64,000 nucleotides of DNA from Vermamoeba vermiformis (lineage: Eukaryota): the NCBI GenBank assembly GCA_045837725.1, contig JBEWZL010000179.1:1-64000 (forward strand), in the 5' to 3' direction. The position numbers and the translations under genes were made by a program. This document shows, piece after piece, positions 1-61,300 of the stretch (within the stretch, counting starts at the first letter, position 1; every line of letters begins with the position of its first letter). Below the pieces are notes generated by a model. The model worked only from the letters and a program-made list of their open reading frames with translations. It was not told the origin of the DNA and made no database searches.

Positions 1-484
1 AGCTTGCTACAAAAGTACTACTTACCATTGGAGTAGTAGTGAGTAGTAGATATTGGTTGTAAACTGTGCGTGTGCTCGAATAGCGTGCACCAAATGAACC
101 ACCGGAGCGTTAAATATCAAGTCGACACGCGTTTATTGGTCGGAAAGCGATACAAGCACGTGACGCCGACGTGGCAGCTCCGCATCAAATGTTGGCTACA
201 AAGTGGGAGAACTTATGAGTGGAAGTCTTCGGTGGTAACACTTGGAATGTTTCTTGGTTGGATCCATCTGGATCGAGCAGGATTTTCACCCAATACTCGA
301 CCTCTGTTGACCTATGCTGCGGGGGAGGAGGTATGGCAGGGTAAAAGCTGATTCGTCTTCCAGGTATGCCATTCTTTATCTCACTCTCTGTTTGCGGTTT
401 GGAGCCTGGCTGCAGTGTCAGGTGCACGAATCTGTCCCAAAGCTCGGAAAAGTACCTCGGCGAATATATAAGCCGCGGTACAAG

Positions 485-2587
485 TTATTCGTTGTCAAAA
501 GCAAACCTAATTTACAAGAATTAGAAAACATAATTGTGTAATTGTGAGGACTTACGGTCGTTTCTGAACTACATCCTCGAAAATTTTTGTTGTGATATCG
601 AGGTCAGTTCCACCCAAGTGTAAAGTTGGTCCTTTAGGCATATAATCTTCTTCAAAATCTTCGTCGAAAGAGTCATCACTCTCCGGGATTGGCGCAACGA
701 AAAAGTTGATCAGCGAAAGATTCACAAAAGATAACAAGCCCAATGCACGCAGGTCAACCCGCACATTGCCCTTGAGACACACTAACTCTAGCAAACGCAG
801 TGTGGATGGAAGTTGGCATTTGGCCAGGAAACCGACATCCAAAGTGAAATCCGACTGGGTTGGCAGCGGTAAACGCAAGCCAACAAGCTGTCTTGCCTCT
901 TTTGCAATGGTACGAACAACGGTAAGGAGGTTTGTTGAGCCAAATGCGTCAAGTAGCCGGCTGTTGAAAGTTTTCGAACCCAGATGTACGAATCTGAGAT
1001 TTGTCAACTTTTGCTTCTCTAGCAACAACGCCGTCGAGCAATTGCTACTGATATATGTGATAGAGCCAATATTTGGGCAATTTCGCCATACAAAGTTGAC
1101 CACAGAGGGCGGGGTTGAGTCCGCAACCAAAACACGAATCTGATCTAGCCTAAAAAAATCAGAAAAAAATTGTAACGCGAGTAATAATCGCTACGTACTT
1201 GCTTTTGGCTTCTTTTGAGAGAGAGGGTCGCTCACCTAGTAGGTTCATGCTGGAAAAGCCAAGCCACCAACATTTTGCGGATAAATGGGCAAGATCTTCA
1301 ACCTCAAAGCGAAAACTGCACAGGGTAACTTCGTCGTAATCAAACGACATTTCTTTGCGCTTGATGGCATTCAAGTCGTTTTGCCACACTTCAAAGCTGA
1401 CTCGTAACGGGGGAACGGTTTCTTCGCGATTGGAGCCGGAATCCGAGCTTTCAGAAGGAGACCGAGCAACTGGAGAATCCTATTGCTTGTGTTAGAGAAT
1501 ATAAACGGAGATATTTAAGACTTACTACTATTGGCGGCGTCTGAGGTTTTGGGGAAGCGGGCAGTAGATCTTCGTCTTCGTCTTCACTGCTAACTAGCAC
1601 GGGTTGTGGCTCTTCGTGAAGGACTGGTTCTTGCACAACGGCCTCAATGGAGGGTTTCGCTTTTTTCGGCGAAGGAGCATTTTCATTTGGGGCAGGGGCC
1701 TTTCGTTTTGCTTGATTTGAGAAAAGAGGCCGGTCCTCAGCAGCAAAAGTTGGCAGGTGAAACCAATGATGACCTAAGCCACGGCATCCCTCAATGAAGT
1801 CTAACGGGCTGTCCTTAGTCGGGACATTGGAGTTTGACGTGGTTGGGTTTCGAGCTGCCCGACCTAGTAATAATTAGAGACAAATAAATATTAATGCGTG
1901 CACCTACCTTGCTGTTGCGGCTTAAAGGTATCGCTAACAAATGACGCGAACTTTGTGAATAGTGGTCGGTTGTAGTCACAGTCGCACGGGTACTTTAAAT
2001 CTTTAGAGGTGAATAGCGCGCGAAGACTATCGTCAGTTTTCCAATATGAGTAGTGGTATCGAAGCGCTACCCACAGCTTGTGATACTCTATGTGAATAAG
2101 TTGGGTGTATTCCTCGTTCGGGTTGGCCAAAAACTTCGCCTGTACGGCTTCCTCGCAGATGCGCTTAGCTGCTTCGAACCGTGCGTAGAAGCCTTTCAAA
2201 AAGGTACCAACATCTCTCCACTCAAGTGAGTCTCCAATCGGTACGCCCAGTGCGTCTGAGATTAAGTCGCGGTATGTTTTATACCACTGCGGGTAATAAC
2301 GGGTTCCCTCTGCAGGGTCCTGCAGCATCTGGTGGAAGTCGAAGATGCAGAACAGAAGGACAAAATCCTCACGCTTAGTGAATGTCGAGTAAGCGGATAT
2401 TTTGCGCTCTGCATTTTGTATAGCAGCTTCGATGCCGCCCACTTGTAGTCGGTTTCTGGCCAAGCTTAAGAACTGAAAATAGTTCCGAATCTTGATCGGT
2501 AGAGGAAGATCCGTAATTTTCGGGTTCTAAAATGAAATGCTATTAATAAATCGTCATTAAATAATTATTTCTGTAATTTTTTACCAT
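485..2587 (-). CDS. Multi-exon hypothetical nuclear protein with a C-terminal LRR-like region
   Basis: ATG at 2587 is followed directly by a GT-AG intron, giving MNPKITDLPLPIKIRNYF. Exons join ORFs 1891-2463, 1451-1636, 1159-1389 and 552-1130 in frame. Contains a bipartite NLS-like KRKAPAPNENAPSPKKAK and Leu-spaced LRR-like segments. Confidence 0.6.
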
Positions 2588-16056: not shown

Positions 16057-18328
16057 ATGACATCAAATGATGGCTCGACAAATCAAAACCGGTTCATTAC
16101 CGTTGTTGCCTTGGTTGGACTAGTTGCTGTGCAGACTTTAGTAGCGATTATCTACAAACTCGCTCAGACCAACGGCAAATATGCATTCTCGACTGCATCC
16201 GCGCTCACGATGGCTGAATTCATCAAGATCTGGCTCAGTTTTGGACTGCACACCCGAACTACCGGATGGAAAAATACGATCCCAGAACTAAGAGAGCATA
16301 TCAAAAAAGCCCCTTACTTTCAAATAGCGGGATTAGCATTTTCATACTTCGTCAATAATCACTTAAATTTCTATTTATTTTTGTGGGCAGATCCCGTTTC
16401 AATTACCGTAATGAAGTCTGGAGCATCCTTCATTACGGCAATATTATCGTGGATAGTACTTGCACGATTTATTTCCCGCGTCCAATGGAGTGCCATATTG
16501 CTACAAGTGGCAGGATTGTGCCTTCTCCAGTACGATCCGTGTCGAAATTCAACAACTTTGGAATTAAATGGCTATTTCATCATGTTTATCAGCGTCTCAA
16601 TAGCTTCTGCCAATGGAATTTGGAACGAACGATTGCTAAAATCTTACGACTGTTCCCTGAATGTTCAGAATATGATGCTCTACACATCTGGAACAGTTTT
16701 CAACTTTTTTCTCTTTTTGGTTCATAGCAATGAAATTGGCTTCTTTGAGGGTAATGCGGAATTTTGCAAATTTCAAATATTAATTGAAATTTGGTTTAGG
16801 CTACAACGTGCCAGCAATAATTGTGGTGTTTTTGAACGCAGTCATCGGCCTTACCATTACAGTCATCTACAAATACACCAATGCTATTGCTAAGACATTC
16901 TGTTCGGCAGTGGCAACTGTAGTTCTATTCATTGTCAATGCAACCCTGTTCAACACACCAGCGACACTCAATTCAATTCTCAGTTGCATCGTGGTGTTTG
17001 TGGCAACTTATTTGTATACACAAAGCGCTGCCGATAATTCGAAGCCAAAGGAATACAACAAATTGCCCACGAGTCAACTCGACGTCGAAGAGCCAGCGCC
17101 AAGCAAGTCCTGCCTTGGATTTTTGTCCGCTCGTCGCATTGGAGCAGTGGTATTCGCTGCGCTGATCATCACTTCAGTGGTAATCTCTATTCAGACTGTC
17201 AAAGCCTCAAGTTCCGCTTTAATTGCATCGAATTCAACTATCAAGACACCAATAGCCGTATTTGCACCAACTGCGTCCGCTTCTTCCGAGTTGCGAATTG
17301 GTGGTGTGGTCAGTCCTCCGAGCAGAGAGTTCTTCGACGACATTCTGGTGATCATTCACTTTCACAGTCCCCACTTTAGACATTTGCCGGTCATTCTCGG
17401 CGAGTACGGCAAAGTATTCAAAAACATCGTCATTTGCGCACAAAAGAAAGCGGATTTGGTCGATTATGTTTGCACAAAAGGTACGCTAAGTATTGAATGA
17501 AGACTTCGTCTAACGCTTGACCACAGATCAAATTACAGGAGGTGGTAACTTCATGTACACGTGCGTGGCAGACATTATGGAGGCATATCCAAACTTCAAG
17601 GGCTACATGGCTTTCCACTTCGACGTTATTATCAATTATTGGAACTTCCCTAGCTTCGACAAAACTAAGCCGTGGATTTCGTTGACCGCGGACAATACAG
17701 GTCCGTATCCCATCAACAAATACACTCAAGACCAGTGGCCAGGTACAGGATATTATTTTTTGATTGTCGCACGTGCTTAACTGGCTATCAGATGATTGGG
17801 GCTGGTGGGGCTCTGAGTACGGCGTTGTTGCGTGTAAGGAGGCCGTCAAAGAATACACAGCGGAGGATAAGAACAAAATGGGAAAAGCATGGGGATTCGA
17901 AGACGGAATGTACAGAGGTAATACTACCTTCTCACCCACTCCATGTTTTAACCGTGTATTTTAGGCATGGGTGATCTCTACTATATCCCCAAAGCCAAGA
18001 TCACCGAGTACAGCAGATTGGCACGCATGTTCCAACGAAACAAAGTCTTTCTTGAAATCGCCGTGCCTACTATAGCGAGCCTGATTGACTTCCCAGCCTA
18101 TCCAACGAACATAACGGGTAAGTAAACTGCTCGACAGAATGATTGTCTAATTGCACTGCAGGCGTTTACGATTGGAGCTATTTGGGTGGTTGGGATCAAG
18201 CAAGGTCGTGGAGTTCCATTTACCTAACTAATTTGCACTTTGTGCACCCGTATCCTTGGTTTAAAGACACGGCGTACGAGGACTTTAGAAAAATGATGCA
18301 GTTCGGCTACACAGCGAATAACTTGTAA
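16057..18328 (+). CDS. SLC35A-like nucleotide-sugar transporter fused to a STELLO/DUF288-like glycosyltransferase domain
   Basis: Transporter helices (AEFIKI, YFVNN, QWSAILLQ, NERLLK, YKYTNAIAK). ORF 16784-17500 runs in frame from the last transporter helices through a further TM segment into DDILVIIHF. Later exons carry FDVIINYWNF, DLYYIP, VFLEIAVPT and HFVHP. Confidence 0.8.
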
Positions 18329-18368
18329 ATATACTCTTTATGAATACAACATCTAACACTAAAGATTT

Positions 18369-21300
18369 TTAAAACAAGCCAGCGTCCTTCTTTACGCGCA
18401 ATTGTTTCCATTTCGGGAATGCTTTGAAGGCGGCACGTTTCATCTTGAATCGCTTTTCAAACTCTTCTTCACTCAAGAAGTCCTCCAATCGCTCAGGATC
18501 GACACCAGGAGGATACGGCTTAACTTTCAATCGATCAAAGTCAAAAATCAAAGCGCCGTCAGCAGCCTCGGTGACTTGCTTGTCGGTCGTGGTGATCGAT
18601 CCAGTTGGCGTTGGTCGTGCGTTCTCTTTAGGGGCCTCGCTTGCCTTTGTACCCTCCATCTCCTTCTTGACCTCGTCAACCAATGCGGGATCAACATTGA
18701 TCAATTGGGTGGAGAAGTGCTTGATCTCAGCCAACTTGCGAGTCCACGGATCTTGACCGGACTTCTTCGGGTCCCAGCCGTGGAAATGAGCAGTAAATTG
18801 AGGAGTCTCGTGTCCTTCGTGGCACAAGACGAGAGGGCAGGTCTCAGAAGTACGACCATCATCTGCATACTTGATGTAGTCCTATAAAGTGCGTGTCAAA
18901 ACCAACCCGGATCTAAAAATGGATCTTAGTGCTTACGACTGCGGTGTTCATGCCCATTTCCTTCTCGTTCTGAGTGGACTTGCTGCCAACCCAAACGAAG
19001 ACAACGTCAAAAGCATCCAGCAACATTACGTCGTCTGAAGTGGATGTCAGATGTGCAGAACAGAAAACCGAATCAAATCAATTTAAACTTACCGATATCC
19101 AAGTCGTCTTGCGAAAAATTGTGAATTTCGAACACTTTGAAAACACCGGTGCGGTCAGAGCATTGAAACAAGCGAGCTTTGATGTCGTGCGCAGCCAGAT
19201 ACGGTTCGTTGGAGTACGGCTGTTTGCCGCCCAAAGCGGACCAAAATTCATCACTCTCGCTTCCTTCTTCAACGACAGTTACGGGTTTAGTAGCATTCTA
19301 GAAAAAAAAAAGGCGGTTAGGGTCGGATCGAGGCAAGATCGTGACCAGATCAAACAAGATTTTCCAAGGACAAGGTCCTCGATCAAAAAGAAAGCAACCG
19401 TTCGATCAGCTCAGCAAAAAAGCAAAAAGAGCACAACACCTCCGATTCCCAGGTAGTCTCCTACCCCAGTACTAAGAAGGCCTGAACAAGCTTAACTTCG
19501 CTGATCGGACGGGAAGCGGTGCATTCTTGTTAGTGTGGTCGTGCCCGAGACGCTTTGCAACAACGTGTTCGGGTCACTACTTGCGAACACTAACAAATCG
19601 CGCACCAATTCCATCCCGGTCTCCGGACAAATTTCATTTTTGGATACGATCTACGAAAAAAAAATCTGGTCTGAAAGTGAACTTACTGCAATAGCGCGCT
19701 GAGCAATCAAGCCAGTAGCCATAGAACGCTCAAATTTGTTGGCTCCCTTGCCAATCCAAGTGAAAGCTTTTTCAGGCAGATCGAGCACAAAAGCGTCGTT
19801 GGAGTTCAGCGAAGTAGCAACCTACACACATTAGTATACTGCAACGGTAGTATTAATAATACGGCTTACAGCTTCCACTTGAATGGCACGAGTGTTGACT
19901 TCATTTGTGCCGCGCAATTGGAACAACACTTTGGTGGGCTTGTTGTCGACCCACTCCTCACGCGAACCCTTGCGAAGGATGTACGTGCCTTCGAAGTGCG
20001 ACAAGAAGTGATCGGGCTCTTTGTTTTGGATAACACGGATCTAATGCGCATGAATTAGTAAATGTTAGACATGAAACCCAACAAGTACCTGAGATGCAGA
20101 TCGTCCAAACTTATTGGCGTAATCTGATGACAATAGCGAGCCAGCACCTTTGTCGTCCTTAAGAGAGCAGTTAGCTTGATAGTGCAACGAATTAAATGGC
20201 ATACTTGGCTCGAGTCACGTCCTTGCCAATTGTACACAACGTGACGATAACCACCACCGCGCAAGTGCACGGAGAAGTGAATAATGTAGCTGTTGCCAGA
20301 GTGGAACAAGCCGTATTCTTCCATAGGCAAGCTGTGCATCTTGGAATCCTTGACGAACCAGATCTGCAACTCGCTCTCGAGATCCGGATCCTTTGAAGGC
20401 ACAGTATCAACGAGCTCTTCGTGTGCGATTTGATATTTCTCAGGGTGATGTAACGCGTCGATGTTGACCTTTTCTTGGACGAGAGTGCCAGCCATCTTGT
20501 GCGACTTCTCGATACGCTTGCCGAAGTTCTCGGGCGTGTCAATGTATTCCTTGAAGTTGCCACGGAACTTGGCCTTGAACAAAGCGTTCTCAACGCCTTC
20601 AGTGACCTTGGTAATAGGTGTCCAGTTGGGACGTTGGAAGTCGTGCAAGAACTTCTTGGCAATGTTCATGGACTCACTCTTCTCTTGCGCGGTAGATTTA
20701 CGGCCAGTCCACACAAAGATCTCAGTGACGCAGTCGAGAATGAAGCAGTCGTTAGTGTCCAAGTGGCTGCGGTCGAGAGGCTTGCCACCCAAGTCAACTT
20801 CAGTGATCTGAATCGAGCCACTGGCATCGCTGACACGATACAACTTGGTCTCCTTGGAGTACTGCTCTTCGAACTCTACGTCATCGCCACCACTGCAAGC
20901 GCGTTAATATCACTTCTGTACAAGAAAGATACTTGGAGATTTACCTGACTTCGTCTTGAATTTCACCTTTGCCGCCCAGAGCTGTCCAAAACGCGTCATT
21001 TTCCTTGCCGTCATCGATGATTACAACCTCGGCCTTAATTCTGTTCATACGCTCATCGCGGAGGCGTACGGTCAAATCCAGTGCCTTGGCCTATAATATG
21101 GTCAGCAAACTAAGCTTGGCACTCCTATTTAAGAATTTCCGACCTTTTCCATCCGAGATGCGCCCTTGCCGTTCCATTGATAAATGACGGTGTCGGTATC
21201 CAAAATGAAGACGTCTCCCTTGTTAAGCGACTTGACTGAGACCTCAACTTGCTTGACACGAATGTTTCTTCGTCCCTACAACTCAGATGTCAGTCGGAGT

Positions 21301-22007
21301 CAATTCCGCCATGTTGTGTGCTGTGATTTTACGATGATTTTAAATTTAAAACGTACCTTCAAATGATATAACTTCGTGGGATGGTCTTCTTCACGCAAAT
21401 TGACTTGTTCTTTCAAGTGAAGAGGCTCGACGTAGCGGATACCTTGCTTGAAAAAGCTCAAAAATACCGATGACTCGTGTTCCTGGACTTCTCTTGCTAC
21501 GGTGCATTCACCACAGTGTTTTTCAAGCACTTGCAATTGTTCAGAAGCAAAATTCTAAATGTGGCGTTAGGATTTGATCGTGCGTAAGGTTGGCGTTGCG
21601 CTTACCTCTTGAGTTGTAGTCTTGCCGATCCAAATATATACGGTGTGGCTCAAATTGCCACTGTCTGCCATTAGACTCTGCGTTATACCACAAGATCAGT
21701 CGTGTAACCGTTAGAGAAAATTGAACTAAAATTTAAAATTCAAGTCTTAAATAACAATAATTACGTGCGATATAGTGCTTACATGGAGAATAAGATAACA
21801 ATCATCGGTACGGAATAGACCGTGAGTTCCTTTGCCAACAACGGAGATCTCTTGAGATTTGTTATCAATTCGCCAGATAAGCAAGCCTCTAGCAATTAAA
21901 TGTTAAAGAAAATATTTTATCAACTAAATAGAACAAAAGAGAATTGAGATTAAAGGATTATGTTTTGGATACGGTTCTTTGCCAGCCTCTTGAAACTTGT
22001 GGGCCAT
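18369..22007 (-). CDS. Villin-like actin-binding protein (gelsolin repeats + headpiece)
   Basis: Repeated gelsolin motifs (DCFILD..IFVWTG, DVFILD, DAFVLD, DVMLLD) and a C-terminal headpiece LEDFLSEEEF..F..FPKWKQLRVKKDAGLF. Confidence 0.93.
19428..19546 (-). rRNA. RNA5S: 5S rRNA, intronic in the villin-like gene
   Basis: 119 nt GGGCACGACC...CCCGTCCGATCAGCGAAGTTAAGC...TTAGTACTGGGG...CCTGGGAAT...GTTGTGCTCT. The terminal helix pairs, and a T-run Pol III terminator follows. Confidence 0.96.
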
Positions 22008-33966: not shown

Positions 33967-35505
<1,539 letters not shown>

Positions 35506-35587: not shown

Positions 35588-35660
35588 GCCGTGATAGCTC
35601 AACTGGTAGAGCGGCAGACTGAACATCTGTAGGTTTTCGGTTCAACTCCGAATTGCGGCA
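35588..35660 (+). tRNA. trnF-GAA: tRNA-Phe(GAA)
   Basis: 73-nt cloverleaf with anticodon loop CTGAACA, T-loop GTTCAAC and a downstream T-run. Position 37 is an atypical C. Confidence 0.85.
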
Positions 35661-58391: not shown

Positions 58392-61300
58392 ATGCGTAGA
58401 ATATGTTACGTAGGCTTGATTTTATTGTTAATTCAATGCAGTCAAGGTAAGTGATCGGATGAGTCAAGATCTTGGCAAGCTCACGCGTTGTAATTTTATT
58501 ATTAATTAATTTATTAAATATTGAACGTGTTAGAGTAATTGCACGGTTCAAGAATTAAAGAAAATCTTCAGTGTTAAAGCAGAAAATTTCCTTTTTAATT
58601 AACGAAGATATTAAGCAAATTAACAATAGCCAGATCCGATTTAACCCTCAACAATATTAATTTCAGCTATTTGATATCGCGTCGTTGCAAAATTTAATGA
58701 TTCTGACGTGTCACGTATTTCAGCCACGTCGTTCTCGTGGGAGGGCCTTGAAACAGCCAACAAAGAGCTGTTTTCTGCGCGTGCAGCCCACACAGTGAGC
58801 GTTGTGGACAATAAGAACGTATACATCTTTGGTGGTCACAAAGGAAGAAATTTGTGGTATAACGATCTGCTGATGCTTGATCTCGGTAAGTACCCTACCG
58901 CTATTGCTCTCAAAGTAAACAAGAGCACTACTTATGACCTTTGTGCGTATCAGAGACCAACCAATGGCAGACTATCGATGCTAAGGGTGATATTCCTTCA
59001 GCAAGGTGCGTGGCTCGAGATCTTCAAACATTCCTAGTTTGTTTCTAATATTTTCTTGCAGAGGAGGTCATAGTGCTGTGGTGTATAACAATAACATTTA
59101 CATCTTTGGCGGCGAGTCAACAAGCGCTCAGTTCATTAGACGAAACTTTGATGATTTATATGAGTTCAACACGAGTGAGTAGTAAATATATAGGACGTAT
59201 TGATGCACCTATTAACGGTCTCTAAAGACACCAATCAATGGCGCAAATTGTCAGCTCGTGGACGCGGACCTTCAGCTCGATCTCACCACAGCACTAGTTT
59301 AGTTGGCCACACACTCTACGTGTTCGGTGGCAATGATGGATTTGACGACTTGAACGACCTTTATTCATACAACCTTCGTAAGTGTTAATTTTATACTTGA
59401 CTTGTTGGCGGCCCATAGCTCACATCCACGAATAGTTAGCGGCGAATGGAAGTTCCATGAGTGCACAGGCGACGTGCCCTTAGCACGATCTCAACACTCG
59501 GCAGTGGTTTTTGATGATAAGATTGTTATTTTCGGTGGCAAGGCAAAGAACTTTTTCTTCAATGACACGATCGTTTTGGATCCTGGTACGCCACCTTTCT
59601 TTGCTATTCGTAGTTGTCTGATGTTGCATTCTAACAAAATAATTACTACAGCCACCTTCTTGTGGCAAAAAGTCGCAGAGCCTGCTGAAAGACCCATTGC
59701 TAAGCGCGCAGGACATTCTGCAACTGTAGCGAACAATTTGATGATCGTGACCGGTGGAGTTAACAGTGAGAGCGATCAGATCTGCTTGACCGAAATATCC
59801 GTACTCGATTTAGGTAAGTTAAATATTTCAGCAAGCGTTGTCGAGCTAACCACGAACAGAAAAACTTGTATGGAGTTCGGATGTGGAAGTCAAGATCAAG
59901 ACACGCTCCCTTCCCCTCTCGCGCAATTTGCACGCTACTACGCCTGTCATTCGTGGAGCCAATAACAATGTGTTCGCTTTGGTCGTTGGTGGACAATCGT
60001 GCTCCAAGTCTGACGTGTTTGACGATGTTTTCAAGATCAGCCTCGATCAGGTGGGATCTTTCTACACTGGTACGTGATTTCAATTTAAATTCGTTGTATT
60101 GTACTCACTACCTTCAGGTATTATGAACATGTTTGGCTCAACGACAGAAAAGCAAGGAGCTGCAGCGATCGACGCAGCAACGAAACCAGCAGCAGGAATT
60201 CGTTGGCAAAAAATTTATGCTGATGAGTCATTCCCCTCACCACGCTACTACCACGCCACTGCTTACGCGCACAAGTAAGTCATACACTTTTTCAAAACGA
60301 GAAATCTCGCGGATCCAAAAAAAGAAATTTTCGTGTTGTTGCGGTTTGATAAGGGTCGTGTTCGCGAACTACCGCGTACGGCAAGTAGTGACCCAAACAC
60401 GTTGTTGCAAAACGTCTCGGGCACGACCACACTAACAAGAATGCACCGCTTCCCGTCCGATCAGCGAAGTTAAGCTTGTTCAGGCCTTCTTAGTACTGGG
60501 GTAGGAGACTACCTGGGAATCGGAGGTGTTGTGCTCTTTCTCTTTTTTGCTTTTTGCTGAGCTGATCGCATGGTTGCTTTCTTTTTGATCGGTGCTAGGA
60601 AAATCTTGTTGATCTGGGCACGATCTTGTTGCTTTCTTTACCATCCCTTCGCTACAATTTTTTTCCATCGACTGGCTTTGCTAGTCAGATCGCCAACAAA
60701 ATACTTCTAAACCGGCCAAACACGAGACTGTGATCATTAATGGAGCTGGCACGTGCAATCGTTCTTTCTAACCGAACCAGGCCCTGTTTTTGCGCTGCGA
60801 CGGGTCAACAACGGCCGTTTAGCTCAGTTGGTTAGAGCATCGTGCTAATAACGCGAGGGTCCCAGGTTCGATCCCTGGAATGGCCAATTTTTTTTTAACA
60901 TTTTTGCTGTTGAGCACGCCTTCGCACCAACATTTTATTCGATTTTTGGTTCGGGACCTCCCCTAATATTGCCTCCAATTAACTCCTATTGCTGGCAGGC
61001 AATTCTACTCTTTTGGCGGCAAGCAGGCATCAAGTTGGACGCAATACTTCAATGAGCTGTTTGAGTTCGACATAGGTATGCTTCTACTACTACTAATCAA
61101 CACTCAAATTAACTCTTCATTTAGCCAGCCGAAAGTGGTCGCAACTTAGCGTTAGTAACGCACCCGATGCCCGTGGAGGTATGTTAACTACTCCCGCTTC
61201 GAGCACCTTTCTAATTTCCGCAGGCCACACGATGACGTACAGTCGCTCTCGAAACCAGTTAATTGTCTTTGGTGGTGAGAGCAAGTCCTATTTCTCCACT

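Follow-up and report, generated by a model that had tools for sequence, protein, structure and literature searches.

Why does a complete 5S ribosomal RNA (rRNA) gene lie inside a spliceosomal intron of a protein-coding gene, and how did a second, identical copy come to lie in an intron of an unrelated gene 41 kb away? The question arises from a stretch of 64,000 nt of Vermamoeba vermiformis DNA (assembly GCA_045837725.1, contig JBEWZL010000179.1, positions 1 to 64,000; hereafter the window), in which one 5S gene is found in an intron of a villin-type gene and the other in an intron of a Kelch-repeat/coiled-coil gene. The original prediction, made from these letters alone, was that the 5S cassette is an element that spreads as DNA and generates introns. 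The explanation that we consider probable is a different one: the two genes belong to a multi-copy, dispersed 5S family, they are autonomous RNA polymerase III (Pol III) units that came to lie in introns already present, and copying at the DNA level links the villin copy with the Kelch copy.

With regard to the genes themselves, Rfam recognises four RNA genes in the window, namely two full-length 5S rRNA genes and two transfer RNA (tRNA) genes. Both 5S genes match the RF00001 model over its full length and well above its gathering score of 38 (Table 1), and their printed alignments are identical. Each is in sense with its host gene, as had been predicted. Runs of five or six T residues, which fit a Pol III terminator, directly follow both copies on the 3' side, as well as the complete 5S gene of a third locus described below. 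One of the tRNA genes, tRNA-Ile(AAT), was overlooked in the earlier reading; it is located in the same Kelch intron as the 5S gene, also in sense. The 5S genes at the two loci and this tRNA gene are thus Pol III genes nested in introns of genes transcribed by RNA polymerase II (Pol II).

The host introns have the properties of spliceosomal introns, since both exhibit GT..AG ends, a branch-like motif and a reading frame that continues across the junction. For the villin gene, four sequencing runs (X1, X4, X16 and X21) were compared with positions 18900-20100 of the window. An RNA-derived contig of run X4 (1521 nt, 0 mismatches) lacks exactly 19298-19686, with CT..AC ends, and also lacks two ordinary neighbouring villin introns of 58 and 48 nt. 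As this contig skips the 389 nt exactly, the villin intron is spliced; the reading frame agrees, with ...GLIAQRAIA joined to NATKPVTVVEEG at the exon junction, and the exon downstream of the 5S-bearing intron beginning with NATKPVTVVEEGSESDEFW. More distant homologues are continuous across this junction. The Kelch intron is supported by its reading frame, by the repeat motif of the gene and by its splice signals. Its junction joins ...PRYYHATAYAH(K) to QFYSFGGK, which fits the gene's own Kelch repeat pattern; no close Kelch homologue with which to check the junction was found at E <= 1e-20 among proteins of 357-2000 aa.

The similarity between the two introns is confined to an internal core of 251 nt (positions 103-353 of the villin intron). 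In a blastn comparison, positions 103-307 and 322-353 of the villin intron match positions 107-317 and 324-354 of the Kelch intron at 94%. The core includes a 38-nt block upstream of the 5S gene, the gene itself, the T-run and a 3' flank, the shared DNA extending ~80-95 nt past the Pol III T-run. This flank is common to this pair only. The 14-mer GCAAGTAGTGACCC, with which the upstream block starts, is present exactly at both window loci, compared with 0.21 expected. Both introns open with GTAAGT, the 5S gene starts 140 nt (villin) and 144 nt (Kelch) after the donor, and 102 and 106 nt separate the donor from the 5S unit. Every shared feature that had been claimed was recovered. The ATCCAAAAA..GAAATTT block (hereafter the ATCC..GAAATTT block) is also present in both introns, as claimed, but its similarity is only modestly above chance, as 10-18 of 1000 shuffles match its score.

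As the villin and Kelch copies share ~95 nt beyond the T-run, this pair requires copying at the DNA level. A 12-mer of the shared flank, GTTGCTTTCTTT, at 60573-60584 recurs at 60628-60639, exactly where the villin/Kelch homology stops, which hints at a possible template-switch scar at the end of the Kelch copy. A search for a small RNA in the conserved 3' flank gave no Rfam match at E <= 1. The shared flank is also unusually rich in GATC.

Two further loci were identified in a metagenome scan with a 31-mer of the 5S gene, on the contigs L001 and L002; the same 31-mer gave 0 matches in the genome-contig collection and 0 in the viral-contig collection. L001 carries a gene with Peptidase_M24/AMP_N (Pfam), the exon of which ends ...SDIT(R) at a GTAAGT donor. 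The M24 profile is matched no further than position 96 of 208, so the gene must continue beyond this exon. After the donor, and in sense, come a tRNA-Ile gene identical to that of the window and then, 256 nt further on, a full 5S gene (104.7 bits). In this region (positions 13-575, minus strand), the order of the two genes is the opposite of that in the Kelch intron, and the 14-mer is found at -81 rather than at -38. A degenerate second block-like stretch is present further upstream. This layout is suggestive of a rearrangement, or of insertions that recurred at Pol III loci. L001 and the Kelch intron have in common only the 5S and tRNA genes, CGTCTC, the T-runs (TTT after the 5S gene), the 14-mer and 8 nt upstream of the tRNA gene; outside the two tRNA-Ile genes, only these 8 nt and the T-run are shared. 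An ancestral 5S-tRNA tandem array as the source of both gene orders was rejected, as the spacers of L001 and of the Kelch intron show no homology beyond the genes, the 8 nt and the 14-mer.

L002 originates from a more AT-rich relative and carries a PIP5K gene (profile matched to 188/288), the exon of which ends at a GTAAGC donor. About 65 nt past this donor, in sense, there is a tandem-duplicated upstream block followed by a 5S gene that is truncated after ~50 nt and has 2 substitutions; the truncated gene is without an RF00001 call. The duplicated piece (positions 1220-1370) comprises the block and the first 6-7 nt of the 5S gene, with a period of ~66 nt. This unit is a decaying or mis-copied one inside the PIP5K intron.

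In all four loci (villin, Kelch, L001 and L002), the 5S gene is therefore in sense and follows a splice donor inside a gene body. The tRNA-Ile(AAT) gene is in sense in both of its occurrences and adjoins the 5S gene in two of the three loci with a complete 5S gene. Every locus contains the 14-mer, which is at -38/-39 in three of the four. The pattern of intronic, sense-oriented 5S genes thus extends from the window, for which it was proposed, to two independent metagenome loci, but the number of loci is limited to four.

The source genome appears to contain many 5S copies. In run X1, which is probably the source DNA, the summed word depth is ~390 in exons and flanks (363-391), ~20,000 in the bin of the upstream block and 222,000-328,000 on the 5S gene; according to a warning of the tool, word depth summed over contigs is not a copy number, and these values are therefore taken only as an indication of many 5S copies. 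The depth of the 3' flank is 228-397, which is the single-copy level, compared with 363-391 for exons. Seventeen X1 contigs (7 at 19582 and 10 at 19584) continue with low-agreement sequence past the outer edge of the block, and further contigs diverge at 19413-19427, just beyond the end of the 5S gene. Many other 5S copies thus cease to be alike at the block's outer edge, and most of the other copies have in common only the 38-nt block and the T-run. Two loci 41 kb apart, L001, L002 and at least 17 X1 contigs diverging at the block edge together represent a dispersed family of unlinked copies with unrelated flanks.

As the block lies at -38/-39 in three of four loci, as T-runs follow the complete genes, and as sharp family boundaries are observed at the block edge and at the terminator, each 5S gene is most likely an independent Pol III unit. 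This unit would consist of an upstream element of ~38 nt at a fixed distance, a gene with an internal control region and a T-run, with Pol III transcription probably depending on the upstream block. The conservation of non-transcribed flanks had been taken as evidence that the unit spreads as DNA. This remains valid for the villin/Kelch pair, with its ~95 nt past the T-run, but not for the family as a whole, as a conserved promoter and terminator would alone produce a shared block and T-run. A short interspersed element derived from 5S was also considered and rejected, since the 5S gene is divided from the flank by T-runs, copying extends to the upstream block and the 3' flank has single-copy depth.

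The unit, or at least its edge, is also present in diverged strains. A contig of 846 nt from run X16, which represents a strain from a water metagenome with ~5% divergence, extends from position 20100 through the exons, the 5' part of the intron and the block into the first 5 nt of the 5S gene. Compared with the window, the block has 0 differences, the adjoining 61 nt of intron carry 8 substitutions and 5 indels, and the exons show few changes. As this contig holds the block and the start of the 5S gene within the villin intron, the unit sits there in the diverged strain as well, and the block is either constrained or homogenised. Run X21, consisting of raw RNA with the same species label, is 5-10% diverged and has no cover at the 389-nt junction; its reads contain a variant of the 38-nt block upstream of its 5S gene. 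On positions 18941-19223, ~20 exon positions in 280 nt distinguish the X21 reads from the window, and nearly all reads agree. The species label seems to cover substantially diverged lineages.

In a relative that is 95% identical, the transcript-derived protein P0001 ends with ...AIA-VSYTFRPNFKSR and a stop, reading into a retained intron at the same villin position (window 19651-19686). The position of the villin intron is thus kept in two diverged relatives, this one and strain X16. Introns bearing 5S genes may often be retained, which would truncate the predicted proteins in transcript-based annotation.

How these observations could fit together may be outlined as follows. The host pre-mRNA would be spliced as usual, and the 5S unit would be removed along with the intron, which would have existed before the unit arrived. 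Introns would represent most of the dispensable DNA in this genome, and 5S copies landing there would survive. A rough estimate from the villin locus alone indicates that ~3/4 of the non-coding DNA is intronic, so that an intronic location is near the default. A crude window-wide intron scan was dropped as unreliable, as many of its 32 candidates skipped exons and the Kelch intron was missed. The sense orientation of all four 5S genes and both tRNA-Ile genes is the unexpected part, and it is suggestive. It could have been favoured because antisense copies would give a host pre-mRNA complementary to the abundant 5S RNA, or would lead to head-on polymerase conflicts. The villin and Kelch copies would result from a more recent copying of DNA that carried along ~95 nt past the terminator.

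Several observations argue against this explanation. Independent insertion into unrelated introns does not account for the similar distances between donor and 5S gene (140 and 144 nt) or for the ATCC..GAAATTT block. Of the depth on the 5S gene, only ~1/10 carries on into the block in this version, and most copies could sit in another context. The tRNA-Phe gene of the window is intergenic, so Pol III genes do not require an intron as host. Splicing of the Kelch intron is a prediction. The sample comprises four loci: given the rough estimate of 3/4, four sense-intronic loci out of four correspond to p ~0.02, and orientation alone to p ~0.06.

The original prediction had the insertion of the 5S cassette create the intron, either with its own splice donor or as an Introner-like or reverse-spliced copy. 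This would account for GTAAGT at both intron starts with the 5S gene at 140 and 144 nt, for the constant sense orientation, which is expected from propagation as an intron, and for host introns that are 4-10x longer than their neighbours. A first global alignment of the 5' segments also gave z = 5.2 against mononucleotide shuffles. However, this value was superseded, because the alignment included the GTAAGT consensus and because mononucleotide shuffles were used. With 1000 dinucleotide-preserving shuffles, the 35 nt after GTAAGT show no similarity between the villin and Kelch introns (z = -0.35; 771/1000 shuffles score as high), and neither do the acceptor-proximal tails (z = -0.2 and -1.1), so that the ATCC..GAAATTT block inside the intron is the sole signal. 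The homology does not reach the splice sites, and the branch-like motifs CCCTAAC (villin) and AATTAAC (Kelch) are located in the unrelated tails. GTAAGT itself is generic: it opens the RNA-supported neighbouring intron of 58 nt and is the commonest hexamer among heuristic intron-like patterns (38/76), while L002 exhibits GTAAGC. In L001, the donor is separated from the 5S gene by a tRNA gene, and no homology of the flanks was found. The villin intron is shared with the 95%-identical relative and with strain X16, and ~77 nt remain when the unit and the ATCC..GAAATTT block are subtracted from it, which is an ordinary size for the villin gene. No target-site duplications were seen by eye at the core edges. 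Regarding terminal inverted repeats, the best pair between the block and the end of the 3' flank (12 nt, 83% complementarity) is not superior to five other pairs and does not occur in the Kelch list; two further inverted pairs are in a crossed, not nested, order. For these reasons, the claim that the unit brings its own donor or generates introns is not upheld, and we regard it as very unlikely.

A related proposal is that the unit (block, gene and terminator, sometimes with extra flank) is mobile and integrates in an orientation-specific manner linked to Pol II-transcribed introns or to Pol III genes already in place, the sense-intron pattern then reflecting an insertion preference rather than survivorship. 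It draws on the sense-intronic position of all four 5S genes, on the sense orientation of both tRNA-Ile genes and on the family's 5' boundary at GCAAG, which is sharp and common to at least 17 source contigs. The pairing of the same tRNA-Ile(AAT) gene with the 5S gene in two different introns, with the order reversed, is suggestive of insertion adjacent to Pol III genes; the distances of 102 and 106 nt from the donor to the unit at the window loci and the tandem partial re-copy of the block and first 5S bases in L002 point in the same direction. Nevertheless, the absence of terminal repeats and target-site duplications noted above also applies here, the unit encodes no enzyme, and blastn detected no other remnants of the villin/Kelch core in the 64 kb. 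The sharp boundaries coincide with the conservation of promoter and terminator, and passive survival predicts much of the pattern, since introns are most of the non-coding DNA. Nesting, moreover, needs no targeting: about 56% of the intronic tRNA genes of Caenorhabditis elegans share the strand of the host, according to the available portion of that study (PMC4999229). Active targeting therefore has, in our view, a small but real chance of being correct. A broader version is quite unlikely: the 5S family, possibly with hundreds of members, and some tRNA genes would be housed systematically in introns in the orientation of the host, because a compact cassette with a fixed 5' end would prefer transcribed introns or sites beside resident Pol III genes; it would enlarge and occasionally found introns, and couple the 5S supply to Pol II units.

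The 5S RNA could also be processed from the intron of the host pre-mRNA, in the manner of intronic small nucleolar RNAs (snoRNAs), in which case the sense orientation would be a functional necessity. All intronic copies are indeed in sense at the four loci, and 18 RNA reads of X21 run from the 5S gene into the upstream block. That library, however, is unstranded complementary DNA, and its reads may represent pre-mRNA or DNA. A T-run after every complete 5S gene and a conserved upstream element at a fixed distance are typical of an autonomous Pol III unit, the intergenic tRNA-Phe gene shows that ordinary Pol III genes exist here, and no precedent was found in the openly searchable literature. 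The probability of this mode of synthesis is close to negligible. Nesting of autonomous Pol III units in pre-existing introns is thus the reading that we retain.

The positions of the features are given in Table 1. The villin gene has ~12 introns, of which the ordinary ones measure ~48-95 nt. Its stop codon is ~40 nt from that of a converging neighbour on the plus strand (window 18328-18369), so that the 3' untranslated regions must overlap or be tiny, and its start is ~400 nt from a diverging neighbour. The genome is extremely compact. The tRNA-Phe gene is flanked by the stop codon of a methyltransferase-like gene (35503-35505) and by the ATG of the next gene (~35907).

Table 1. Positions, strands and supporting details of the features discussed in the 64-kb window.
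Feature	Positions	Strand	Details
Villin-type host gene (gelsolin repeats and villin headpiece)	18369-22007	-	Pfam Gelsolin and VHP; exon high-scoring segment pairs; homologues including P0001
Villin intron with 5S unit	19298-19686	-	389 nt, phase 0; GTAAGT donor, CCCTAAC branch-like motif, T-run before CTAG acceptor
5S rRNA, villin locus	19428-19546	-	RF00001 104.7 bits, model 1-120; sense with villin
38-nt upstream block, villin copy	19547-19584	-	Starts GCAAGTAGTGACCC, ends CGTCTC; candidate Pol III upstream promoter element
T-run terminator (~19413-19427) and 3' flank, villin copy	19334-19427	-	Shared with Kelch copy by 94% blastn match
tRNA-Phe(GAA)	35588-35660	+	Rfam and ARAGORN; intergenic
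Kelch-repeat/coiled-coil gene intron	60275-60998	+	724 nt, phase 2; GTAAGT donor, AATTAAC branch-like motif, CAG acceptor; holds 5S and tRNA-Ile
38-nt upstream block, Kelch copy	60381-60418	+	2 differences from villin copy
5S rRNA, Kelch locus	60419-60537	+	RF00001 104.7 bits, model 1-120; sense with Kelch gene; identical to villin copy
T-runs and 3' flank, Kelch copy	60538-60628	+	Shared with villin copy
tRNA-Ile(AAT)	60813-60886	+	RF00005 65.4 bits and ARAGORN; sense, inside Kelch intron; T9 run after; identical to tRNA-Ile of L001

If the pattern is true for the lineage, working 5S genes inside introns, all directed like their hosts, would constitute a distinct organisation of an essential multi-copy gene. 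It would be a natural system in which to study how a Pol III unit coexists with Pol II elongation and splicing. It also bears on how dispersed 5S copies stay identical and on whether intron length in compact genomes is driven by the insertion of Pol III genes. For annotation, introns bearing 5S genes look anomalous and may be retained in transcripts, as in the transcript of one relative. On present evidence, the pattern has no bearing on the origin of introns.

The usual descriptions of 5S genes place them in arrays, in linkage with other repeats or dispersed between genes. Introners make up the whole intron, carry or co-opt splice sites and often exhibit terminal repeats and target duplications. 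The 5S units resemble them in being a repeated sequence in introns of unrelated genes, with host introns much longer than their neighbours. In contrast to Introners, their homology ends well short of the intron boundaries, and ends of that kind were not found. No literature linking the term introner with 5S rRNA was found. Intronic snoRNAs are processed from a Pol II intron and are without their own promoter and terminator, whereas the 5S units possess T-run terminators and, upstream, a conserved block.

Acanthamoeba castellanii, Schizosaccharomyces pombe and Neurospora crassa have dispersed ('linearly scattered') 5S genes (PMC1635290), and the family described here is similar to them, as far as the available part of that account extends, in comprising many unlinked copies that have short conserved elements and unrelated flanks; Acanthamoeba is also an amoebozoan. 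It differs in that all four loci are sense-intronic, a location or orientation that this part of the account does not mention. For fission yeast, the accessible text of another study describes frequent gain and loss of 5S genes and 5S-mediated recombination (bioRxiv 10.1101/2022.12.06.519325). The accessible portion of a review on transposable elements and ribosomal DNA (PMC10946416) contains nothing relevant. No report of 5S genes inside spliceosomal introns was found in the open full-text literature, a scope that leaves out subscription journals, supplements and the original Acanthamoeba 5S papers.

Two further systems are comparable in part. In C. elegans, the portion of the study available describes tRNA genes hosted by introns, with nesting conserved between relatives and a possible influence of the host on expression (PMC4999229). 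As in those cases, an intron of a protein-coding gene houses a complete Pol III gene; unlike them (tRNA genes, 56% host-oriented), the genes here are 5S genes, and all four, together with both tRNA-Ile genes, are in sense, in a small sample. In Yarrowia lipolytica, 48 of 108 5S copies are located 3' of a tRNA gene and form dicistronic tRNA-5S genes, according to the excerpt consulted (PMC2566860). A physical association of 5S with a tRNA gene, tRNA-Ile(AAT), is also observed here, in two of the three loci with a complete 5S gene. Unlike the single fused Pol III transcript described for Yarrowia, the 5S and tRNA genes here are 256-275 nt apart, have their own T-runs and vary in order between loci: L001 has a T-run after the tRNA gene and a 256-nt spacer, and the Kelch order is reversed, which does not correspond to a dicistronic tRNA-5S gene. 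Dispersed 5S genes, tRNA genes nested in introns and the association of tRNA with 5S genes are thus known, and what sets the present case apart is the presence of 5S genes in spliceosomal introns.

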